Shown in pieces: positions 2,352 through 61,690 of a stretch of 64,000 nucleotides of DNA. The notes below the pieces were generated by a model, which worked only from the letters and a program-made list of their open reading frames with translations, was not told where the DNA came from and did not search any database. How positions within the stretch are numbered: the stretch's first letter is position 1; each line of letters starts with the position of its first letter. The position numbers were made by a program, and so were the translations under genes. The stretch is from Bacteroidales bacterium (lineage in GTDB: Bacteria; Bacteroidota; Bacteroidia; Bacteroidales; P3): contig JAFVBA010000004.1 in NCBI GenBank assembly GCA_017480245.1, forward strand, positions 11 to 64,010. Reading direction: 5' to 3'.

Positions 2352-2534
2352 GGCTAAAATTCTAAGAAATATTGCGTGCTATACTGTATTTTGGGTTGAT
2401 TTTTAGCGTATTTTTTGAAAAATATCTGCTGAAAATTGTAATAAAGTCAGCTAAAATAACATTAAAATTGCAGGAAAATATTTATTTATGTAAGTTTTTT
2501 CACATAAAATTTGGTTGATATTCAATAAATTTTG

Positions 2535-2542
2535 TAATTTTG
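2535..2542 (+). promoter_or_regulatory. -7 promoter box TAATTTTG for lipoprotein gene 2654..3100
   Basis: TAnnTTTG match inside a block (about 2466-2545) that is duplicated at about 4312-4381. Confidence 0.5.
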
Positions 2543-2653
2543 CCTGAGGAAAGACTAAAAGATTGACTAATTTGATTAATCTAACTTCTAAAACATAAAA
2601 ATAAAATAAGCAGAATTAAAAACATTAGTACAAATTATAAAAATACGAAGAAA

Positions 2654-3100
2654 ATGAAAAGAACAATTTATGCAATATTAATTATTGCGGGTTTAAGTTC
2701 CTTTAATTCAGTTTGTATTGGATGTAATGATACAAACAAAAAGGAAGTTGTTACAGTGAATGAGTCAAAGACTATTCCGGACGGTGTTTATACGGGGAAT
2801 TTATCCAAACAAGATGGAACTTCGGCAGAATTAAAGCTTACAATTAAGGACGCTGTCATAGTTTCGGCAACATTGGACGGAGCAAATTACCCGTCTATAA
2901 CAACAAAGAAAAGAGAGTATAAAGACAATCTTAAAGATGCTGTCGATTATTCTCAGTTAAAATCAAAGGATTATACTTGTATAAAACTTATCAAGATTGA
3001 AGGGAAAACAGAATCTACAGATAACGCCTCTAACAGTACATACTACATTATTTTCTACGAGAAAGAATTAGAAAATGGTGATTGTTGGTATGAAATGTAA
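2654..3100 (+). CDS. Lipoprotein, paralogue family P (copy 1)
   Basis: Signal peptide with Cys. About 55% identical to 4653..5117, sharing IPDGVYTG, SAELKLTI, VIVSATLDG, YYIIFY and CWY. Confidence 0.8.
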   Translation: MKRTIYAILIIAGLSSFNSVCIGCNDTNKKEVVTVNESKTIPDGVYTGNLSKQDGTSAELKLTIKDAVIVSATLDGANYPSITTKKREYKDNLKDAVDYSQLKSKDYTCIKLIKIEGKTESTDNASNSTYYIIFYEKELENGDCWYEM

Positions 3101-3118
3101 AAGATTGACAATCAAAAT

Positions 3119-3165
3119 GTGCCGTTTCGTTTAATTAGTTTATGAAAACGGCACTTTCTTTTTAT
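3119..3165. terminator. Hairpin terminator between convergent genes, using the same GTGCCGTTT/AAACGGCAC arms as repeat family A
   Basis: GTGCCGTTT...AAACGGCAC stem followed by CTTTCTTTTT. Confidence 0.7.
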
Positions 3166-4191: not shown

Positions 4192-4271
4192 CTGTCTTTA
4201 GTGTTTATTATTCTATTTATTCCAAAACGTAAATAAAGATTATTTATTGCTTTTATAGTCATTTAATAAAT

Positions 4272-4320
4272 AAAAGTGCCGTTTGGGTGAATTGTTTTTT
4301 GAAAAGAGAATAAAATATTT
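4272..4320. repeat. Repeat family A, left arm only (truncated copy)
   Basis: AAAGTGCCGTTTGGGTGAATTGTTTTTTGAAAAGAGAATAAAATATTT matches the left half of 5620-5695. The right arm is replaced by the duplicated promoter block. Confidence 0.6.
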
Positions 4321-4371
4321 ATTTATGTAAGTCTTTTCGCATGAAATTGGGTTGGTATTCAAAAAATTTTA

Positions 4372-4379
4372 TAACTTTG
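4372..4379 (+). promoter_or_regulatory. -7 promoter box TAACTTTG for 4653..5571
   Basis: TAnnTTTG match in the duplicated promoter block. It implies a leader of about 267 nt. Confidence 0.5.
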
Positions 4380-4652
4380 CAGCTGAAAAAAAAACAATAA
4401 AAATGAAAAATTATAATCAAATATCTAATGATAGGAACATTTATGTATATATTTCTATATATATACATATAATTGGTAAAAATAACTTACTGAACTTTGC
4501 CTGTTAAATAGATTCAGCTGTAAATCGGTCGATAACATAATGTTTTTACAAGTTTATTTCTCTATTTAACAGGTTAATCTAATTAATTTTAGATGTAAAG
4601 AAATAAATTAAAAGCGACTAAGTTAAAAATAAAAATTTAAAAAGCAAATAAA

Positions 4653-5117
4653 ATGAAAAAGATTATTAAAGCAATATTAATTATTGCAATGTCAAGTTCC
4701 TTTATTGCCTTTGTTGGTTGCAAAGATGCAAATGAAAAGGAAGCAGTTTCTAAAAGTAGTATATCTGTAACTATTCCGGACGGAGTTTATACGGGATCTT
4801 TATCAAAACAAGACGGTTCTTCAGCCGAATTAAAACTTACGATAGTAAGAAATGTTATAGTGTCGGCGACATTAGATGGTAATGATTATCCGTATATCAC
4901 AAGAGTAAGAGATGAGTATAGAGGTAATCTTAGAGATGCTGTTGATTGCGCTCAATCAAAATCATTAGAATACCCTTGTGTAACAATTCTAAAGGTAGAG
5001 GGAGATGCTGGAACTAATGAAGGAGAGTTAGGTGGTGCATACTATATTATCTTCTATGATAATGAATTAGAGGATGGTGGTTGTTGGTATGACGATATTG
5101 AAAATAGAGGGGAATAA
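4653..5117 (+). CDS. Lipoprotein, paralogue family P (copy 2)
   Basis: Lipobox FVGC. Paralogue of 2654..3100. Confidence 0.8.
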   Translation: MKKIIKAILIIAMSSSFIAFVGCKDANEKEAVSKSSISVTIPDGVYTGSLSKQDGSSAELKLTIVRNVIVSATLDGNDYPYITRVRDEYRGNLRDAVDCAQSKSLEYPCVTILKVEGDAGTNEGELGGAYYIIFYDNELEDGGCWYDDIENRGE

Positions 5118-5571: not shown

Positions 5572-5619
5572 TTTTTCGCTATCGCAAGATAAAGAAAATA
5601 TTTAAGTAAATAGCCAAAC

Positions 5620-5695
5620 AAAGTGCCGTTTGGGAGATTTGTTTTTTGAAAAGAATAAAATATTTTCAGAAAATAATTTGCTCAAACGGCACTTT
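5620..5695. repeat. Repeat family A, full palindromic copy between convergent genes
   Basis: AAAGTGCCGTTTGGG...CTCAAACGGCACTTT with the internal TTTTGAAAAGAATAAAATATTTTCAGAAAA core. Confidence 0.75.
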
Positions 5696-5721
5696 AGTTA
5701 TATAAGACAAGAATAAAAATC

Positions 5722-9250: not shown

Positions 9251-9325
9251 TATCTTGTATTTCTGAAAGATATAAATATTACTTAAATTTATTGATAAGC
9301 GATATATCCTTATCAAAATAAATTA

Positions 9326-9518
9326 GTGCGAGCCGCACAGGCAATAAAAACCTATTAAAATAAAGTGGTGCGAGCCGCACGGGCAATAAAAACTTATTAA
9401 TTAAAATAAAGTGCCGAATCACGAAATTATTTTCAGAAAAGAATAAAATGTTTCTTGAAAAGAATTTACTGAAACGGCACTTTATTTTGGTTTATTTTTA
9501 TTGCCTGTTTGGTTCGCA
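9326..9518. repeat. Composite repeat: two direct copies of GTGCGAGCCGCAC(A/G)GGCAATAAAAAC plus an inverted partial copy, enclosing a family-A element
   Basis: Direct copies at 9326-9351 and 9368-9393. The inverted copy is GTTTATTTTTATTGCCTGTTTGGTTCGCAC at 9489-9518. Confidence 0.65.
9406..9485. repeat. Repeat family A copy
   Basis: AAAGTGCCGAATC...GAAACGGCACTTT with the family core. Confidence 0.75.
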
Positions 9519-9614
9519 CAACTTTACTTTAAGGAAATGTATTGCAGGTAAGGAGATTTTGGAGTTAATTAATAATATTTTGACTTTAATGAGTCTGTTT
9601 TGGAATATTTTTAT

Positions 9615-12147: not shown

Positions 12148-13041
12148 ATGAAAAGAAAAATTTTTTCAGCATTACTTTTGGGTGCAGCCTTAGGCGTTAA
12201 TGCACAGAACAATATTGAAGATTTTGCAACAAGCAGCGACGGTGTTAAGTACAAAATAGAAAAGATTAACCAGGAAGGGCAAAGGGTTAAAGAAGGAGAC
12301 CTTGTTATCGGCAGGTTTTCAATTTACTATGGCGACAGTTTGGTTTATAACGGAATGAACCGCCCGTCTGCGCCTGTTTTTCCTGTTGTTAAGCAAAACC
12401 ATATATTTAACGGTGATTTGATTGACGGATTAAAACTAATGCATGTGGGAGATATAACAACGTTTGCCTTTGAAAAGGACACGATGGTTAAATACAATAC
12501 GGGAGTTCCTAAAGACATCACTGCAAAATATGTATTCTATAAAGTAAGAGTTGATTCTGTTACCTCACTTGCAGAAATGGAAAAAGCGGAAAGAGAACAA
12601 GCCGAACAATACCGTCAAAAAGAAACCTCACTTATTGAAGATTATCTGACAAAAGAGGGGTGGAATAAACAGAAAACTGATGGCATTTACGTAAAGCTCC
12701 TTCAAAAAGGAACGGGTGCAAAAGCCAAGAACGGAGATAAAGTAAAGATTCATTACATCGGGCAATTACTTGACGGAACATACTTTGACACTTCGGTAGA
12801 ATCGGTTGCCAAGGAAAACAATCTTTACAACGCTCAAAGACCATACGAACCTTTGGAGTTTAAAGTTGGAGCTGGACAGATGATTAGAGGCTTTGAGGCT
12901 GCGGCACGTCAATTGAGTAAAGGCGGAAAGGCAATTGTTTTGATACCGAGTGAATTGGCTTACGGCGCAAGGGATATGGGTATAATAAAACCTTATTCTC
13001 CGCTACTATTTACAATAGAACTTGTGGATATTTCAAAATAA
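12148..13041 (+). CDS. FKBP-type peptidyl-prolyl cis-trans isomerase
   Basis: FKVGAGQMIRGFEAA...LLFTIELV. Has a signal peptide. Confidence 0.8.
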   Translation: MKRKIFSALLLGAALGVNAQNNIEDFATSSDGVKYKIEKINQEGQRVKEGDLVIGRFSIYYGDSLVYNGMNRPSAPVFPVVKQNHIFNGDLIDGLKLMHVGDITTFAFEKDTMVKYNTGVPKDITAKYVFYKVRVDSVTSLAEMEKAEREQAEQYRQKETSLIEDYLTKEGWNKQKTDGIYVKLLQKGTGAKAKNGDKVKIHYIGQLLDGTYFDTSVESVAKENNLYNAQRPYEPLEFKVGAGQMIRGFEAAARQLSKGGKAIVLIPSELAYGARDMGIIKPYSPLLFTIELVDISK

Positions 13042-13050
13042 ACTGAAAAG

Positions 13051-13125
13051 AAGTGCCGAAACAGTAAATTCTTTTCTGAAAAGAATAAAATGTTTTTTGA
13101 AAACAATTTGTTGATTCGGCACTTT
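13051..13125. repeat. Repeat family A copy, just after the FKBP stop codon
   Basis: AAGTGCCGAAACAG...TGATTCGGCACTTT. Confidence 0.75.
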
Positions 13126-13257
13126 ATTTTGAAGACTTAGTAAAATAGAGTAATAACTTGAATAATAAGAGTTTGTATCTTGTAATTTACAAATGTAACA
13201 TTCAAGAAAAAATTAAAGAACAGAATATTTGATTAAATAACATAAAGAAATAAGATA

Positions 13258-17519: not shown

Positions 17520-18338
17520 TTAAAACATTTGCTCTGCCTTTTCAATAGAAGAAAGTTTGCCTGTATCAATCCATAATCCATTATGAATGTAGGGTTTAAT
17601 GATATTATTTTCCGATAATTTCAAATACATATCGGTAATTGAGAAAACGCCTTTTTGAGTTATTTTCTCAAAAATTTCATTACTTACCAGATGAACTCCA
17701 GAAAAGGCATAAAGATTTTCTTGTTTGCATTTGCGGGTTATAATCTTCTCGTTGGTTTTCAGATTTGTCCATCCGCAAAGTTCGTTCTCCTCATTAAAAA
17801 TCAAATATCGCTGAGTATCCCGTTTTTGTACCGCCAAAAGAGCTAAAGGTGAGGATTCTGCGAACTTTTTTGGCATATCATTAAAGTCAATATCGGAAAG
17901 AATATCAACGTTATGAAGCAATATTAAATTATCATCAAGACTCTCTGAAATAAAGTGCCGTTTCATCAAATTGTTTTCAGAAAACATTTTACTCTTTTCA
18001 GAAAAGAATTTACTGTTTCGGCACTTTATTTCAGTGTTGTTGCACAATAAGTTACGGGCATTAAGAAAACCTCCTCCCGTGTCAAGTAATTCTTGTCTTT
18101 CGTCTGAAATAATTATATTGCAATCATATTTCTTTGCAATTTTTTTTATAAACTCTGTCATCATATCGGGAAAATGATGTATATTTACGACAATTGTTTC
18201 AATGCCGTAACTTACCATCTTCTCTATATTCCTTTCCAAGAGAGTTTTTCCGTTAATCTCTATAAGGGCTTTGGGTTTGGTATCGGTTAAAGGTCTTAAA
18301 CGGGTACCCAATCCCGCTGCGAAAATCATGGCTTGCAT
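17520..18338 (-). CDS. Sugar-phosphate nucleotidyltransferase (NTP_transferase fold, MurU/RmlA-like) carrying a 30-aa repeat-derived insertion
   Basis: N-terminal AAGLGTRLRPLT motif, plus LDTGGG and HNVDILSD. The 272-aa length includes a 30-aa insert. Confidence 0.8.
   Translation of the reverse strand: MQAMIFAAGLGTRLRPLTDTKPKALIEINGKTLLERNIEKMVSYGIETIVVNIHHFPDMMTEFIKKIAKKYDCNIIISDERQELLDTGGGFLNARNLLCNNTEIKCRNSKFFSEKSKMFSENNLMKRHFISESLDDNLILLHNVDILSDIDFNDMPKKFAESSPLALLAVQKRDTQRYLIFNEENELCGWTNLKTNEKIITRKCKQENLYAFSGVHLVSNEIFEKITQKGVFSITDMYLKLSENNIIKPYIHNGLWIDTGKLSSIEKAEQMF
17945..18034. mobile_element. Repeat family A copy inserted in frame (90 bp, 30 codons) in the nucleotidyltransferase CDS
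   Basis: Arms are CTGAAATAAAGTGCCG / CGGCACTTTATTTCAG. The interior is almost identical to the intergenic copy at 21264-21354. Confidence 0.8.
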
Positions 18339-20454: not shown

Positions 20455-21204
20455 TTATTTTTCTTTAATCTTTTTTGTCAATGCACTACAGAAAATAAAG
20501 TCATTAAGTTCTTTATTGTCCGTTTCCAAGACGTTTTCGTGGTTGCCCTGCCAATGCAATCTGCCTTCGTGAATGTAAATAATGTTTTCGCCGATTTCCA
20601 TTACGGAGTTCATGTCGTGTGTATTGACAATGGTAGTCATATTGAACTCTTTGGTCAAATCCATTATCAATTTGTCAATAAGAATTGAGGTTTGAGGGTC
20701 AAGACCTGAGTTCGGCTCGTCGCAAAATAAGTATTTAGGTTGTGCGGATATGGCTCTTGCTATGGCAACTCTTTTCCTCATTCCGCCCGACAGTTGAGAG
20801 GGGAACATCTGGTTAATACCTTTCAAATTAACTCTTTCTAAACAGTAATTAACTCTGTCAATACGGGCTTTGCGGCGCATATTGGAAAACATACGCAAAG
20901 GAAACATTATGTTTTCTTCTACTGTCATGGAATCAAAAAGCGCTCCCTCTTGAAAGATAAAGCCAATATCTTTTCTTACATCAATTTTCTGTTCTCTGGA
21001 CATAGTTGCCAGTACTCTGTCGTCGTAAGAAATAAAACCTTCTTCGGGAGTATATAAACCGGCTATACTTCTCATCAAAACAGTTTTGCCGCTTCCCGAT
21101 TTACCTATAATAAGATTGCATTTGCCAGGGAGAAACTCCGTGGTTATATCTTTTAAAACCTGTCTGCCTTGAAAATATTTTGAAACATGGGATACTTTTA
21201 TCAT
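20455..21204 (-). CDS. mlaF: ABC transporter ATP-binding protein (MlaF-like)
   Basis: Walker A GKSGSGKT, signature LSGGMRKR, Walker B LFCDEP. Confidence 0.8.
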   Translation of the reverse strand: MIKVSHVSKYFQGRQVLKDITTEFLPGKCNLIIGKSGSGKTVLMRSIAGLYTPEEGFISYDDRVLATMSREQKIDVRKDIGFIFQEGALFDSMTVEENIMFPLRMFSNMRRKARIDRVNYCLERVNLKGINQMFPSQLSGGMRKRVAIARAISAQPKYLFCDEPNSGLDPQTSILIDKLIMDLTKEFNMTTIVNTHDMNSVMEIGENIIYIHEGRLHWQGNHENVLETDNKELNDFIFCSALTKKIKEK

Positions 21205-21263
21205 AATACAATCTTAATTATAAATAATTGATTCATAACTTAATGTACTAACATGGAAATTCC

Positions 21264-21354
21264 TTGAAAAAAGGTGGCGTTTTACGAAATTGTTTTCAGA
21301 AAACATTTTACTCTTTTCAGAAAAGAATTTACTGATTCGGCACTTTATTTCAGT
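21264..21354. repeat. Repeat family A copy lying between mlaE and mlaF
   Basis: The right arm CGGCACTTTATTTCAG is intact. The left arm is degenerate (AAGGTGGCG). Confidence 0.75.
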
Positions 21355-21398
21355 GAAAAAACATCTTACTTTTATATGTTCAAAAAAGGCAGTCATCA

Positions 21399-22148
21399 TT
21401 AGTTGAAAAGTTCGGTTATAAGTATATTGAAAATCATTATCACAATGGAACTCTGCACTACGGCTTTGGTTGATTGTTGTCCTACTTCAACACTTCCTCC
21501 TTTGATGGTATATCCTCTATAGCAGGAGATAGTTGAGATTATCAAAGCGTTGATTATTATTTTTACCATTGCATACCACAAATCCCCTAAGCCGAATTCC
21601 AAACGCAATCCCTCTACATAATCAAACAATGTAAGATTTCCCAACAACAAACCGCCTAAATAACCTCCGATAAGTGAGATAAAAATACTCTGAATTGCCA
21701 ACAAAGGAAAGAAAACTACGCACGCAATGATTTTAGGCATAATAAGATACGAAGCAGTATTGACACCCATAACCTCCAAGGCGTCTATCTGTTCGGTAAT
21801 ACGCTGAGTACCGATTTCAGATGCAATCTTGGAAGCACATTTTCCTGCCAAAATAAGCGAAATAATAGTAGGGGAGAACTCAAGCATCATAGCCTTTCGG
21901 GAAACAAAGCCGTAAATCCATTTAGGATACATAGGATTTTCCAGATTCAATAAAATCTGCATCACAACCGCTGCTCCGACAAAAATACTTATAACGGAAA
22001 CTATCATAATTGAATCCACGCCCAATTCTTTCATCTCAAAGATAATACGCCTTAAGAAGACCTTATGGTTTTGAGGCCTTTTGAAAGCATCTTTCATCAA
22101 CACAAGATACTCTCCGAATGCTTTTATGAAATTTATTAACGTTTTCAA
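21399..22148 (-). CDS. mlaE: MlaE-family ABC transporter permease
   Basis: 249-aa polytopic membrane protein with typical MlaE size, next to an MlaF-like ATPase. Confidence 0.75.
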   Translation of the reverse strand: MKTLINFIKAFGEYLVLMKDAFKRPQNHKVFLRRIIFEMKELGVDSIMIVSVISIFVGAAVVMQILLNLENPMYPKWIYGFVSRKAMMLEFSPTIISLILAGKCASKIASEIGTQRITEQIDALEVMGVNTASYLIMPKIIACVVFFPLLAIQSIFISLIGGYLGGLLLGNLTLFDYVEGLRLEFGLGDLWYAMVKIIINALIISTISCYRGYTIKGGSVEVGQQSTKAVVQSSIVIMIFNILITELFN

Positions 22149-26512: not shown

Positions 26513-26626
26513 CTCTCTGCCTTTTGCGAAAATAATTTGAAAAAAACTCTTTTTTTATCTCAAAAAAACAGTTTTTTTACTACAAAAAAAGAGTTTTTTT
26601 CAAAATGAATTGCGAAAGGGCGGAGA
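26513..26626. repeat. Repeat family B copy (A-tract/T-tract palindrome with GCGAAAGGGCGG-type ends)
   Basis: CTCTGCCTTTTGCGAAAATAATTTGAAAAAAACTCTTTTTTT ... AAAAAAAGAGTTTTTTTCAAAATGAATTGCGAAAGGGCGGAG. Confidence 0.7.
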
Positions 26627-32278: not shown

Positions 32279-32353
32279 CAATCAATTAGGATTTATTTGA
32301 AATGAAATGTACAGTTATCAAATTAGCTGTACATTTTATTTTTGTAATATTGG

Positions 32354-32525
32354 ATAATAATTTTGCAAAATCGGAAAACATTTTTGTAATTTCTCAAAAT
32401 ATTTTTGTTTGGACGGTTCAAAATTATATTTCAGACCGTCTAAAACTATATTTTAAACCGTCCAAAATGCAGTTTTAAACCGTCCTGACAAATTTAATTT
32501 GGGAAATTGCAAAATTATTTTACAG
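32354..32525. repeat. Repeat family C copy (TIR element with internal GGACGGT units), inverted relative to 57071-57219
   Basis: The reverse complement aligns with 57071-57219, including TTTGTCAGGACGGTT and AAAATAATTTTGCAATTTC. Confidence 0.7.
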
Positions 32526-32618
32526 TATTGCAAAAATGTTTTTTGACACATCAAAATTAATTTGAAAAATAAAAGTAAAATTTTCCGCAAATTTTATCTG
32601 CATATTAAAAAAAAGTAA

Positions 32619-39573: not shown

Positions 39574-39687
39574 TCCGCCGCCCTTTGCGGAGAAATTTTC
39601 AAAAAAAGAGTTTTTTTAACCCGAAAAAAGAGTTTTTTTGATATAAAAAAATAGTTTTTTTCAAAATAATATGCGAAAGGGCGGCAG
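39574..39687. repeat. Repeat family B copy between the receptor and lipoprotein genes
   Basis: CCGCCCTTTGCGG...AAAAAAAGAGTTTTTTT x3 ... GCGAAAGGGCGG. Confidence 0.75.
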
Positions 39688-50797: not shown

Positions 50798-50957
50798 GGT
50801 TTATTATTTCTTTGTAAGGTTCAAACAAAATATTCTTCATTGTTAAGAAATTGACTTGTGTTATAATAATCCTGTCTGAAATTTGTCAGTTTTGTTGAAA
50901 AATTGTTGGTTTAAGGATAACATAGAAACAAGATAAAACTGTCCAATTATAAGTTTT

Positions 50958-51046
50958 CAGAATAAAACGGCGTTTCCAAAAATTGTTTTCTGAAAAGAAT
51001 CTGACGAAGTGGCGTTTTACGGCAACGAAACGTCACTTTATTTTTG
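50958..51046. repeat. Repeat family A, degenerate copy (left boundary of the islet)
   Basis: CAGAATAAAACGGCGTTTCCAAAAATTGTTTTCTGAAAAGAAT...AAACGTCACTTTATT. Confidence 0.6.
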
Positions 51047-51353: not shown

Positions 51354-52214
51354 ATGTCGCAACAAGAAGCATTAAAACTGTTTGAAACAAAGAAAGTCCG
51401 CACCGTTTGGGATAACGAGAAAGAGAGATGGTATTTTGCCGTCGTGGATGTTGTCGCTGTATTAACCGACAGCGTAAATCCACAGGCCTATTGGAGAAAA
51501 TTAAAACAACGGTTGATAGAAGAAGGCAATCAAACCGTGACAAATTGTCACGGTTTGAAGTTGACGGCTGCGGACGGTAAGAAAAGATTAACCGATATGG
51601 CTGATACTGAGCAGTTATTCCGTATTATCCAGTCTATTCCGTCGCCTAAGGCAGAGCCGTTTAAGATTTGGATGTCGCAGGTTGCAAGTGCAAGATTGGA
51701 ACAGTTGCAAGACCCGGAGAAATCTATTGACCAAGCCGTAAAAGATTATAAACGGTTGGGATATAGCGATAAGTGGATAACGCAACGCATACGTTCAATA
51801 GAAGCAAGAAAGGAATTGACGGATGAATGGCAGAGAGGCGGAGTGAAAACAGGACAGGAGTTTGCAATGCTTACTGATTTGATGCTTCGGACATGGAGCG
51901 GTTTGACGACAAGGGAATACAAGGATTATAAAGGTTTGCACAAAGAAAGTTTGCGGGATAATATGACAAACATAGAGATTGCTTTAAACACTTTGGCTGA
52001 AGTATCTGCAACCGAATTGTCAAAACAAAAGAATCCGAAGAGAATATCCCAACACCGTAATATTGCAATGCGTGGCGGAGAAATAGCAAATACGGCACGC
52101 AAAGAACTTGAAAAAGATTTAGGTAAGAGTGTTATTTCCTCAGCAAAAGCAAGCGATTATCTTATATCTGACAATGATGTAAAGTTATTAGACGAGAAAG
52201 AAAACGAACAATAA
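51354..52214 (+). CDS. Bro-N domain protein (phage antirepressor / DinD-like)
   Basis: Bro-N hallmarks: VRTVWDNEKERWYFAVVDVVAVL and SPKAEPFKIWMSQV. The C-terminal half is DinD-like. Confidence 0.75.
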   Translation: MSQQEALKLFETKKVRTVWDNEKERWYFAVVDVVAVLTDSVNPQAYWRKLKQRLIEEGNQTVTNCHGLKLTAADGKKRLTDMADTEQLFRIIQSIPSPKAEPFKIWMSQVASARLEQLQDPEKSIDQAVKDYKRLGYSDKWITQRIRSIEARKELTDEWQRGGVKTGQEFAMLTDLMLRTWSGLTTREYKDYKGLHKESLRDNMTNIEIALNTLAEVSATELSKQKNPKRISQHRNIAMRGGEIANTARKELEKDLGKSVISSAKASDYLISDNDVKLLDEKENEQ

Positions 52215-52317
52215 AAAGGTAGTACTAATAGCAATAAACATAATAAAACAGCAGGTGAAAACAAATTCTTTGCCGTTTTTATTTTATTGTTTTAATTTTC
52301 AATTCAAATTTTCTTTG

Positions 52318-52325
52318 TATTTTTG
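52318..52325 (+). promoter_or_regulatory. -7 box TATTTTTG driving the structured leader and the MTase-nuclease operon
   Basis: Context is TTTCTTTGTATTTTTGCAG. Confidence 0.55.
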
Positions 52326-52327
52326 CA

Positions 52328-52605
52328 GTTGCAATAGTGCAACATAACAAGCAATAACTATTATTTCACATTCAAAATAAGTCCGACAAACTCATTTTGC
52401 AAAAAAGAAATAAAATAGTTCAGGCAAAGTTCTGTTTGAAATAGGTCTTACAAAACAAAGTTTGCACCTTAGGTGTATAACTTTCTATGTAAGACAAGGT
52501 ATTCAATGTCGGACTTTACCTGAATGTGAGTAGAACAAGTTTACACCTTATTTTATTTGTTTTTATTAAAAAGTGATTGATAGTTTTTGCAAAAATTATC
52601 AATCT
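52328..52605 (+). ncRNA. Structured ~275-nt leader or candidate ncRNA (or MITE) upstream of the methyltransferase
   Basis: A +1 hairpin GTTGCA/TGCAAC. A 162-nt hairpin (52367-52528) closed by CACATTCA..AAGTCCGACA / TGTCGGACTT..TGAATGTG. An inner hairpin GTCTTACA/TGTAAGAC with AAAGTT/AACTTT and CACC/GGTG. The duplicated segment AAGTTT(G/A)CACCTTA gives alternative pairings. Confidence 0.45.
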
Positions 52606-53580
52606 ATGTCTGATAGTAAGAGTTTAAGTAATGCCAGAAAGGCAAAGAAAGATGAATTCTATACTCAATTAGAAGATATTGAGAAAGAATTAAAACATTA
52701 TAAACAACATTTCAAAGGAAAGACTGTTTTGTGTAATTGTGATGACCCACGGGTAAGCAATTTATTTACCTATTTTTCACATCATTTTGAATCGTTAGGG
52801 TTGAAAAAACTTATAACCTCCTGTTATAAGAACCAAGATATTGATTTGTTTTCACAAAATTCATCAGATAAAGCCGTATATTTGGAATATACAGGCGACA
52901 AAAACGGAAACAAAATACCCGACAGGGAAGAAATAGAAGTAAAACCATTGCATGATAACGGAGATTTCCGTTCCGATGAATGCAAAGAACTTCTAATGCA
53001 AGCGGATACAGTAGTTACCAATCCGCCGTTTAGTTTATTCAGAGAGTATTTGCAACAAATCATTGATTTTGATAAAAAGTTTTTAATAATTGGCAATGTC
53101 AATGCAATAACATATAAAGAGTGTTTCAAATTAATTAAAGACAATAAAATGTGGTTAGGTGCAAGTATTCACAGCGGCGACAGAAAATTCGGCGTTCCTG
53201 ATGATTATCCATTGAATGCTGCAACCTGCGGAATAGATGATAAAGGGCAAAGGTTTATAAGAGTTAAGGGCGTTCGTTGGTTTACTAATATGGATTACAA
53301 AGAGCGACACGAGGATTTGCCTTTATATAAAAAGTACAATGAGCAGGAATATCCGAAATACGATAATTATGATGCAATAAATGTAGATAAAACTTCGGAT
53401 ATTCCGTGCGATTATTACGGTATTATGGGCGTACCTATAACTTTTATGTATAAATATAATCCCGACCAATTTGAAATTTTGGGATTAGATAATCATAATT
53501 TGAATAATAGTCTGGGATTAGGTGCAAATTCAATTAAAGGTAAGACTATTTATAGGAGAATAATAATTAAAAGAAAGTAA
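52606..53580 (+). CDS. EcoRI-family N6-adenine DNA methyltransferase
   Basis: N-terminal DEFYT and CNCDDP blocks and the catalytic TNPPF motif typical of the EcoRI_methylase family. I prefer the ATG at 52606 over the GTG at 52573. Confidence 0.8.
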   Translation: MSDSKSLSNARKAKKDEFYTQLEDIEKELKHYKQHFKGKTVLCNCDDPRVSNLFTYFSHHFESLGLKKLITSCYKNQDIDLFSQNSSDKAVYLEYTGDKNGNKIPDREEIEVKPLHDNGDFRSDECKELLMQADTVVTNPPFSLFREYLQQIIDFDKKFLIIGNVNAITYKECFKLIKDNKMWLGASIHSGDRKFGVPDDYPLNAATCGIDDKGQRFIRVKGVRWFTNMDYKERHEDLPLYKKYNEQEYPKYDNYDAINVDKTSDIPCDYYGIMGVPITFMYKYNPDQFEILGLDNHNLNNSLGLGANSIKGKTIYRRIIIKRK

Positions 53581-53584
53581 AATT

Positions 53585-54691
53585 ATGGAAGTAAAATTGC
53601 ATGAAATAACCGTAAGACAATTAGTTGATGGTTATGAAAACAGAGAAGACGAAGGTGTTGTTGGATTCGGCGGAAAATTAGACATACGTCCGCCTTATCA
53701 AAGGGAATTTATCTATTCTGCAGACAAACAAAAAGCCGTTATTGACACAATATTCAAGAATTTTCCGCTGAATATAATGTATTGGGTCAAAAGAGATGAC
53801 GGTACATTTGAAGTTATGGACGGGCAACAGCGAACTATGAGTATTTGTGAGTATTATTGTTGTAATTTTTCAATAGAAAAGGACGGTTATTTGAAAGGTT
53901 ACGACAACCTTACCGATAAAGAACAGGAGGATTTTCTCAATTATAAACTTATGGTTTATTTTTGCGAGGGCGATGATTATGAAAAATTGCAGTGGTTTAA
54001 GACAATAAACATTGCAGGCGAGGATTTGTCCGACCAAGAAATGAGAAACGCAGTATATAACGGCTCATGGGTGAATAATGCAAAGGTTTGGTTCAGCAAA
54101 AAAGTAGCAGGATGTCCCGCATATCAGATAGGAAGCCCGTATATTGCCTCTTCGGTGAAAATAAACCGCCAAGGGCTGTTGGAACTTGCGATAAAATGGA
54201 TAAGCAAGGGCAACATCAATGAATATATGAAGCAGCATCAACACGACAAAGACGCAACGGAACTTTGGAATTATTACAAAAACGTCATTGAGTGGGCTGA
54301 AAATCTGTTCGGAAAGCCGAGAAAAGAAATGAAAGGCTTACCTTGGGGCGAGTATTACAATGAATATAAAGACCAAGAGTTTAATCCCGAGGCTATTCAA
54401 CAAAGAGTTGATTTTCTTATGCAAGACGAGGAGATAGAAAGCAAAAAAGGTATTTATCTTTATGTGCTTGACGGCAAGGAAAAGCATCTTAATTTGCGTC
54501 AATTCCCTGAAAATATCAAGCGAACGGTATATGAAAAACAGGAAGGCAAATGTTTTGTTTGCAAAAAGGAATTTGAGTTTGAAGATATGGAAGGCGATCA
54601 TTGGAAACCGTGGCATGACGGAGGTAAAACGGAAATAGATAATTGCCGAATGTTATGCCGTGATTGTAACAGGGAAAAATCCGGCAAGTAA
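53585..54691 (+). CDS. DUF262 (ParB-like, DGQQR) plus C-terminal HNH nuclease; GmrSD-like restriction component
   Basis: DGQQR motif (VMDGQQRTMSI). C-terminal HNH GDHWKPWHDGGKTEIDNCRMLCRDCNREK. The start is 4 nt after the MTase stop. Confidence 0.8.
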   Translation: MEVKLHEITVRQLVDGYENREDEGVVGFGGKLDIRPPYQREFIYSADKQKAVIDTIFKNFPLNIMYWVKRDDGTFEVMDGQQRTMSICEYYCCNFSIEKDGYLKGYDNLTDKEQEDFLNYKLMVYFCEGDDYEKLQWFKTINIAGEDLSDQEMRNAVYNGSWVNNAKVWFSKKVAGCPAYQIGSPYIASSVKINRQGLLELAIKWISKGNINEYMKQHQHDKDATELWNYYKNVIEWAENLFGKPRKEMKGLPWGEYYNEYKDQEFNPEAIQQRVDFLMQDEEIESKKGIYLYVLDGKEKHLNLRQFPENIKRTVYEKQEGKCFVCKKEFEFEDMEGDHWKPWHDGGKTEIDNCRMLCRDCNREKSGK

Positions 54692-56956: not shown

Positions 56957-57070
56957 GTAAATACATTTTGAATTGCATTAAAAAAGCAAATAATTTTTAC
57001 GCACCCAAAAGACATTTTCTCTATTGCGCAATTTATTTCTGCAATAGGGCATAACAATTTTGCAATCACT

Positions 57071-57219
57071 GAAAATAATTTTGCAATTTCAGAAAAGAAT
57101 TTTGTCAGGACGGTTCAAAATGTACTTTTGGACGGTTTAAAACTATATTTTGGACGGTCTGAAATTCTGTTTTGAACCGTCTGAACAAAATTCTTTTCTG
57201 AAATTGCAAAATTATTTTG
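57071..57219. repeat. Repeat family C copy: ~35-bp terminal inverted repeats enclosing four GGACGGT/ACCGTC units
   Basis: Left TIR GAAAATAATTTTGCAATTTCAGAAAAGAATTTTGT, with its complement at 57185-57219. Internal units are at about 57108, 57130, 57152 (direct) and 57173 (inverted). Confidence 0.75.
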
Positions 57220-57315
57220 CGGTATTACAAAATTCTTATCGCTTATTACAAAAATAATATAAGCATTAACGGGAAAATTTTACAGATTTTTTATTGTCAA
57301 TTGGAAATTTTTGAG

Positions 57316-61580: not shown

Positions 61581-61690
61581 CAGCCCTTTGTGAAAAGAAT
61601 TTCAAAAAAAAGAGTTTTTTTGACTGTAAAAAAGAGTTTTTTTAGGTTAAAAAAATAGTTTTTTTCAAAATGTTTTCTGAAAAGGCGGTG
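61581..61690. repeat. Repeat family B copy
   Basis: CAGCCCTTTGTGAAAAGAATTTCAAAAAAAAGAGTTTTTTT...AAAAAAATAGTTTTTTTCAAAATGTTTTCTGAAAAGGCGGTG. Confidence 0.7.

Follow-up and report, generated by a model that had tools for sequence, protein, structure and literature searches.

Rickettsia palindromic elements (RPEs) are the best-known case of in-frame copies within genes: R. conorii has 44 RPE-1 integrations, and 53 of the 526 RPEs in R. bellii are genic (PMC10969869, PMC1458961). [quoted passage not shown] Populations of REPINs, which pair with a REP-associated tyrosine transposase (RAYT), persist through vertical descent, with members grouped around a master sequence, and decay upon loss of the RAYT (bioRxiv 10.1101/2021.07.10.451892). 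In Bacteroidetes, TnpA_REP subclasses 2.4 and 2.6 are flanked by atypical hairpins with further genomic copies (PMC6006769). Here we analyzed a 64,000-nucleotide stretch of an uncultured ruminant-gut Bacteroidales genome (GenBank assembly GCA_017480245.1, contig JAFVBA010000004.1; hereafter the window), in which a murU-like nucleotidyltransferase gene carries a 90-nt palindromic repeat in frame. The same loop of the encoded protein is occupied in every member found of one clade, by inserts that resemble the intergenic repeats of their own genomes. A sequence-only reading of the window had assumed novelty for such an insertion. Comparison with the literature lowers that novelty, since in-frame REP and MITE insertions are known well beyond Rickettsia (PMC3733652, PMC2759123, PMC10969869) and TnpA_REP subclasses have been described in Bacteroidetes (PMC6006769). 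The open-access literature held no description of this repeat family or of an in-frame palindromic insert in a Bacteroidales murU, and the finding adds a fresh case to a phenomenon already known rather than revealing a new kind of system.

The host gene is an intact open reading frame (ORF) of 272 aa on the minus strand (17520..18338), annotated here as a MurU-like sugar-1-phosphate nucleotidyltransferase, and the element occupies 17945..18034 on the same strand, encoding approximately residues 102-132 (TEIKCRNSKFFSEKSKMFSENNLMKRHFIS; nhmmer E = 1.9e-27). The description of this segment as an in-frame imperfect palindrome of 90 nt was borne out: its 40-nt arms are 83% complementary, its outer 16-mers are exact inverted copies of each other, giving the terminal inverted repeats expected of a MITE, and its mRNA strand is predicted to fold into a hairpin of -36.6 kcal/mol (z = -8.3 versus shuffled sequences). 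Each arm of ~40 nt carries the small palindrome TTTTCWGAAAA; the outer arms read AAATAAAGTGCCG and CGGCACTTTATTT, and the ends of the element CTGAAATAAAGTGCCG and CGGCACTTTATTTCAG. The hairpin is retained in all copies of the repeat, with most pairs invariant and four showing double changes. Rfam searches of the whole window at the gathering threshold and of 17800-18200 in E-value mode returned no family matching the element, and a scan for intrinsic terminators did not call the full elements as canonical terminators.

As had been proposed, the length of the element is a multiple of three (90 nt, 3 x 30) and the element is stop-free; it begins at codon position 2 of codon 102. The earlier count of exactly 30 codons holds for the amount of DNA, while the number of residues touched is 31. 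The phase used in murU (xEIKCR...RHFIS) is open in five of five window copies and in both orientations, while the other phases mostly contain stops. Any single given phase is open in ~10% of shuffles, and because the copies share ancestry, the open phase is a property of the family and not independent evidence of selection. Roughly one insertion in three, in either orientation, would leave the host ORF open. Intron- or intein-like removal of the insert was ruled out by the lack of stops and of such signatures.

Other copies were sought with an nhmmer profile built from the repeat copies. The arm 16-mer occurred six times in the window with up to two mismatches, versus 0.07 expected, and the profile recovered five full copies (17941-18037, 21260-21356, 13040-13135, 9400-9493 and 5613-5702; E from 1e-22 to 1e-27). 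Chance similarity of the copies was excluded by these E-values and by shuffles, and all window copies except that in murU lie between ORFs. The near-identical intergenic copy that had been noticed at 21264 (21264..21353, plus strand, in the spacer that separates the MlaE gene from the ABC-ATPase gene) shares 91% identity with the genic copy, and the related copies suspected near 5620, 9406 and 13051 all proved to be full ones. That at 13043..13132 (minus strand, 89% identical to the genic copy) starts 1 nt past the stop of an FKBP gene (12148..13041), that at 9401..9490 (plus strand) is nested within another inverted repeat (9315-9367 / 9478-9530), and the 88-nt copy at 5614..5701 (plus strand, between convergent genes) is the most divergent full copy and has a near-perfect hairpin (-37.8 kcal/mol, z = -9.2). 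Three more full copies, all intergenic, were found on contigs L095 and L096, which are assigned to the same organism (L096 and L002 derive from one sample). Eight full copies are therefore known, about one per 13 kb of the ~104 kb of DNA seen, one genic and seven intergenic. The window also holds a degenerate intergenic copy (50956..51046, plus strand; nhmmer E = 2.5e-6), a half copy made up of the left arm and centre (4269..4319, plus strand; nhmmer match 4269-4308, E = 2.4e-5) and a weakly matching short hairpin with the arm motif alone (3114..3162, plus strand, GTGCCGTTTC...GAAAACGGCAC followed by TTTCTTTT; nhmmer match 3114-3159, E = 0.03). This last hairpin directly follows the gene at 2654..3100, looks like a common terminator and may point to where the arms came from.

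Window copies are mutually 83-91% identical, and over its central 48 nt the genic copy matches the intergenic consensus exactly. Where the genic copy differs from the copy at 21264, the mismatches are clustered (7 in 23 nt versus 1 in 67 nt; Fisher p = 2e-4), which is compatible with a conversion tract but not proof of one. Several further observations concern the setting of the repeats. Elements abut the 3' ends of genes, at 1 nt from the stop codon for the copy at 13043 and 10 nt for a copy on L095 that follows a peptidase M50B gene. The copy at 9401-9490 belongs to a nested-palindrome composite (9299-9530), where it is preceded by a 42-nt tandem duplication carrying GTGCGAGCCGCAC hairpins. 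Gene callers place small ORFs (46-177 aa; P0121-P0127) over intergenic copies (window 21200-21400; L001:6940-7125), and these are almost certainly spurious. A DNA pattern scan for the arm motif in JGI metagenome contigs gave four unrelated hairpins only, and the family with these exact arms was not present there. Tandem units of ~20 nt with ATAAAGTGCCG form inverted arrays in the unrelated metagenome contigs L091 and L094, so the arm motif recurs in other repeat systems.

The resemblance to RPEs lies in how the element works: it is an interspersed palindrome that is found between genes and in frame in a housekeeping gene, has a stop-free phase and sits at a fold-tolerant site. RPEs differ in being ~100-150 bp long and in forming Rickettsia-specific families that are recurrently genic, whereas the element here is 90 bp long, resides in Bacteroidales and is genic in one of eight copies; it probably comes from an unrelated family, and the comparison is one of description, with no claim of RPE membership. 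The RPE-like label given by the sequence-only reading stands for mechanism; for recurrence in many genes, no evidence emerged from the ~104 kb of DNA or from the peptide searches, which returned only spurious small ORFs. A profile search of a 5.8-billion-protein index for a second host protein of the encoded peptide yielded four small ORFs only, a negative that is unreliable because the search also missed the positive control P0001, which scores E = 3.5e-11 against the peptide profile when tested locally. An exhaustive HMMER search of 1.84 billion representatives (clustered at 50% identity) gave seven matches, all of them short or spurious ORFs over intergenic copies.

With REPs and REPINs (PMC3116915, PMC3733652, PMC6006769) the element shares a hairpin of two inverted arms, each with a short palindrome, and copies that are mostly extragenic, 3' of or between genes, with occasional intragenic copies known for REPs. 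Its within-genome population is also homogeneous around a master-like consensus and decayed in the relative L004 (see below), a contrast that resembles the decay of REPINs upon RAYT loss. In contrast to REPINs, which have been characterized mainly in Proteobacteria, the element has no GTAG or CGTC tetranucleotide tag at its ends, and no RAYT gene was seen in the ~104 kb. Like MITEs and ERIC/RU elements (PMC2759123, PMC10969869, PMC11602168), among which in-frame fusions are not unusual, it is short, non-autonomous and has inverted termini, while it differs from them in folding back along its whole length, instead of carrying terminal inverted repeats around an unrelated core, and in having no recognizable target-site duplication.

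The assignment of the host protein to the nucleotidyltransferases was confirmed by matches to Pfam NTP_transferase (PF00483; 6e-15) and to two NCBIfam MurU models, its best NCBIfam matches (2e-35 and 8e-35). Both NCBIfam matches are split into two stretches, the first of which stops at residue 102, and PDB sequence matches also break off at approximately residues 99-102. The NCBIfam scores (122 and 121 bits) lie below the curated equivalog cut-offs (370 and 250), partly because the insert splits the match. MurU (N-acetylmuramate alpha-1-phosphate uridylyltransferase; PDB 4Y7T/4Y7U/4Y7V, 8HHD) nevertheless provides the best sequence-family and structural matches: the closest PDB structures to the predicted model are 4Y7U, 4Y7T and 4Y7V (template-modelling score TMt 0.84-0.89), and the predicted NTP_transferase fold is intact together with the conserved G-x-G-T-R-x(n)-P-K and TGGG motifs. 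Close relatives are named N-acetyl-alpha-D-muramate 1-phosphate uridylyltransferase by JGI. No AmgK gene was seen beside murU in the window.

In an AlphaFold2 model built on the alignment, mean pLDDT (predicted local distance difference test) was 87 and the core exceeded 90, with only residues 103-132 below 50 and the fold intact, in line with a surface loop, the point that structure prediction had been suggested to check. The insert is probably a disordered excursion of ~30 residues on an otherwise normal fold. By analogy with the nucleotidyltransferase fold, its loop would stand at the start of a strand whose far end bears the catalytic Asp, and it is predicted to be distal to the active site. 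The core showed dN/dS (nonsynonymous to synonymous substitution rate) ratios of 0.09-0.21 against six orthologues, with dS saturated (>1), which indicates that the gene is under purifying selection across the clade, and the ORF is intact in eight of eight insert-bearing orthologous loci examined. An assembly artefact was ruled out, as the murU gene sequence is identical on contigs from at least three independent ENA assemblies; these contigs are 99.96-100% identical to the window overall and are therefore uninformative on population variation.

The view that the element was inserted into a normally short loop between conserved blocks was upheld by comparison with ~8,000 homologues. Proteins with no more than 56% identity are 231-250 aa long, and in them ~4 residues separate the post-TGGG helix from the strand LLHNVD. 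A 4-residue loop is also present in L098 (P0021, 246 aa), where it reads ...ELFLLGEPILVHNVD, and the gene order of L098 is that of the window (ClpB, MlaE, ABC ATPase, 7TMR-HD, murU and a 346-aa gene), so that L098 represents the orthologous empty site. In contrast, every protein at 55-70% identity had extra residues in the loop, from 12 to 58 beyond the 4-residue ground state. In a neighbor-joining tree built without the loop columns, the insert-bearing proteins formed one clade from ruminant-gut Bacteroidales, with the insert-free P0018, P0020 and P0021 outside it, and none of the members found inside it lacked an insert. Among GTDB species representatives the nearest, and the only close relative in the scan of GTDB genomes, is a Bacteroidales metagenome-assembled genome from water-deer rumen (L005; 62% aa identity); the scan did not return the species of the window itself. 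The syntenic orthologous loci L004, L005, L085, L087, L088, L090 and L097 have 71-76% DNA identity to the window, and their alignments to it break at the insert (17938-18065).

What fills the loop differs among these loci. L004 carries a decayed copy of the window element (nhmmer E = 1.5e-7, 68% identity) whose left junction agrees with that of the window, and L087 an insert of exactly 90 nt that starts CCT GAA ATA AAG TGC and ends TCA G, at the same codon positions and in the same phase as in the window; within it the arm motif is directly repeated four times in 21-nt units, and L004 has a similar tandem array between genes. The loop of L005 has a different sequence, with 75% identity across 85 nt to one of L005's own intergenic repeats (E = 3e-11), that of L090 matches both an intergenic palindrome of L090 and the L005 family, that of L097 holds 21-nt-periodic repeats, and that of L088 is a short remnant with only 12 extra residues. 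In the window, L087, L005 and L090 alike, codons 16-17 after TGGG coincide with the GC core of the left arm. Tandem repeats of 7 aa (21 nt) recur in this loop, as INxIKCD x4 in L087 (L087:10090-10203) and as TDKLVLN-like units x3 in L097 (L097:~2470-2600), and in P0007 a 14-aa unit is duplicated in tandem there, so that slippage is a further way in which the loop evolves. An insertion that is recent or private to this genome does not agree with these data, since all clade members carry an insert at the same loop and the junctions are shared by the window, L004 and L087. The alignment of orthologues proposed by the sequence-only reading, in which a homologous segment in genomes lacking the repeat would count against insertion, came out ambiguous, as clade members carry a segment while true outgroup orthologues do not. 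The presence of an insert in all members of the monophyletic clade suggests that the insertion is old and dates to the ancestor of the clade.

The genic inserts resembled the intergenic repeats of their own genome and not the orthologous insert, and the same held at two intergenic sites. Copies in the window and L004 at two shared sites, murU and the spacer between the MlaE and ABC-ATPase genes, are 68-69% identical, and identity between the two copies within L004 is 51%. The MlaE-ABC spacer that is syntenic with the window copy at 21264 contains repeat copies in both L004 (7013-7077) and L005 (7008-7051), and the RNase T-FKBP spacer of L005 (15237-15279), syntenic with the window copy at 13043, contains a copy of L005's own family, which thus occupies murU and both spacers. 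We argue from these three shared sites that occupancy is ancestral. The likeness of inserts to repeats of their own genome suggests concerted evolution or repeated replacement; combined with ancestral occupancy, lineage-specific sequence would require gene conversion, replacement from active copies or co-evolution with a trans-acting factor. We raise only tentatively a stronger proposal: all through the clade's radiation the DNA of the murU loop would have stayed in step with the non-coding repeats of each genome, being overwritten time and again from a REPIN-like population through gene conversion or re-templating.

Taken together, the element is best described as a non-autonomous, hairpin-forming interspersed repeat with REPIN- or RPE-like architecture that would have entered the DNA for a short surface loop of MurU, between the post-TGGG helix and the strand LLHNVD. 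With a length divisible by three and one stop-free phase in both orientations, it would have left the ORF intact and would be translated, and the enzyme may well have kept its activity. On this account the insertion occurred in the ancestor of the ruminant-gut Bacteroidales clade and the loop has been occupied ever since, with the sequence of the insert being held close to the intergenic repeats of its own genome by gene conversion or by replacement from active copies and, where the family looks inactive, having decayed, shrunk or become 21-nt tandem repeats. We assign a probability of about 0.65 to this explanation as a whole, from the nature of the family and the insertion to ancient occupancy and turnover, and we consider the genic copy most likely to be a passenger that is tolerated, not an adaptive module. 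Several points weigh against it. The tree carries no support values; except in L004 and at the L087 termini, the inserts elsewhere in the clade are not significantly similar to that of the window, so that a single origin rests on position, phase and monophyly; and several matches among the A/T-rich repeats of relatives extend over 23-60 nt only. A Pfam scan of 30 window ORFs and the annotations of L001, L095 and L096 (~104 kb in all) revealed no transposase of the Y1/RAYT or any other type, so we infer mobility only from the dispersed copies, and the window contained no autonomous insertion sequence with matching termini that could be the parent. Direct repeats that could represent a target-site duplication were absent at the genic junctions (...AACAACA|CTGAAAT...ATTTCAG|AGAGTC) and around the other copies, although such a duplication could have eroded as the insertions are old. 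The mRNA hairpin could impair transcription or translation, and the near-clonal contigs give no within-species view of selection after insertion.

The main alternative is that the loop has been struck independently in each lineage by whichever repeat family was locally active, such that target preference and tolerance, and not descent, account for its occupancy. Inserts that vary in sequence, length and repeat type by lineage and yet match their own intergenic repeats would be expected under this scenario, the position of copy 9401 inside another palindrome suggests a preference for inserting into hairpins, and the differing REPs at the recB site of the two Xanthomonas species provide a precedent (PMC3733652). 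Independent strikes do not readily explain why junction codon position and phase are identical in the window, L004 and L087, why the left-arm GC core is placed alike in four loci or why no insert-free member was found within the clade. Co-occupation of two intergenic sites in the window, L004 and L005 would further make for three coincidences, which are improbable without strong site specificity. We rank independent insertion lower, as less likely than ancestral occupancy and on the whole unlikely. Less probable still is an inactivated gene or decaying pseudogene, in which the hairpin acts as a terminator or RNase target and the open frame is a coincidence of a stop-free element of length 3n. 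A long stable hairpin does lie inside the mRNA, the arm motif alone is terminator-like at 3114-3162, and an element of length 3n with one open phase has an approximately 1-in-3 chance of keeping the ORF. Yet ORF and conserved motifs are intact in every insert-bearing orthologue at dS > 1 and dN/dS of 0.09-0.21, the predicted fold is intact, and the U-rich segment of the genic copy is paired within the stem and followed by AGAGUC rather than by a U-tract.

Co-option of the insert, as a functional interaction or regulatory peptide or as an intragenic cis-element bound by a factor that recognizes the intergenic copies, seems to us the least probable of the explanations considered. It would agree with occupancy of the loop throughout the clade, with the identity of the central 48 nt to the family consensus and with the core TTTCAGAAAAGAATTT, which is common to a second, larger repeat family. 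The peptide, however, is not conserved between species, where it ranges from 12 to 58 extra residues and is reduced to a short remnant in L088, and the insert has pLDDT below 50.

Additional features were observed in the window. The second palindromic intergenic family (~200-250 nt; window 32332-32540 and 57022-57268, L087:14956-15163) is 72-79% conserved in a related species and contains repeated GGACGGTYTRAAA units, with the core TTTCAGAAAAGAATTT in common with the 90-nt element. A third intergenic family has AAAAAAAGAGTTTTTTT-type units in direct and inverted orientation (window 26519-26623, 39580-39684 and 61584-61688). A 5S rRNA gene at 10-122 (Rfam, 75.5 bits) places the start of the window at the tail of an rRNA operon. 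Two paralogous small genes (2475-3100 and 4312-5117; 148 and 154 aa) have conserved upstream regions and no Pfam match, and flank two more unknown ORFs that are bracketed by partial repeat copies. Adjoining the degenerate copy at 50956-51046, three neighbouring genes (51354-54691) encode a Bro-N domain protein, an EcoRI-like adenine methyltransferase and a GmrSD/HNH nuclease, and this region may be a small defence or mobile island.

The locus adds a case from uncultured ruminant-gut Bacteroidales to the short list of palindromic repeats inside working genes. For annotation pipelines, split or low family scores for such genes are to be expected, along with spurious small ORFs over intergenic copies. 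Because the set of syntenic orthologues spans the empty site, the intact palindrome, a decayed copy, 21-nt tandem derivatives and a short remnant, the fate of the insert can be traced through time. Of greater interest is that one loop has stayed occupied over the long term while its content turned over in a lineage-specific way, following the intergenic repeats of each genome. Were the loop indeed overwritten repeatedly, an active trans-acting maintenance system for such repeats would be implied in Bacteroidota, and the locus would be a natural marker for concerted evolution of dispersed 90-nt repeats at one genic and two intergenic orthologous sites. If homogenization is real, it could help to tell gene conversion from re-insertion for short dispersed repeats.

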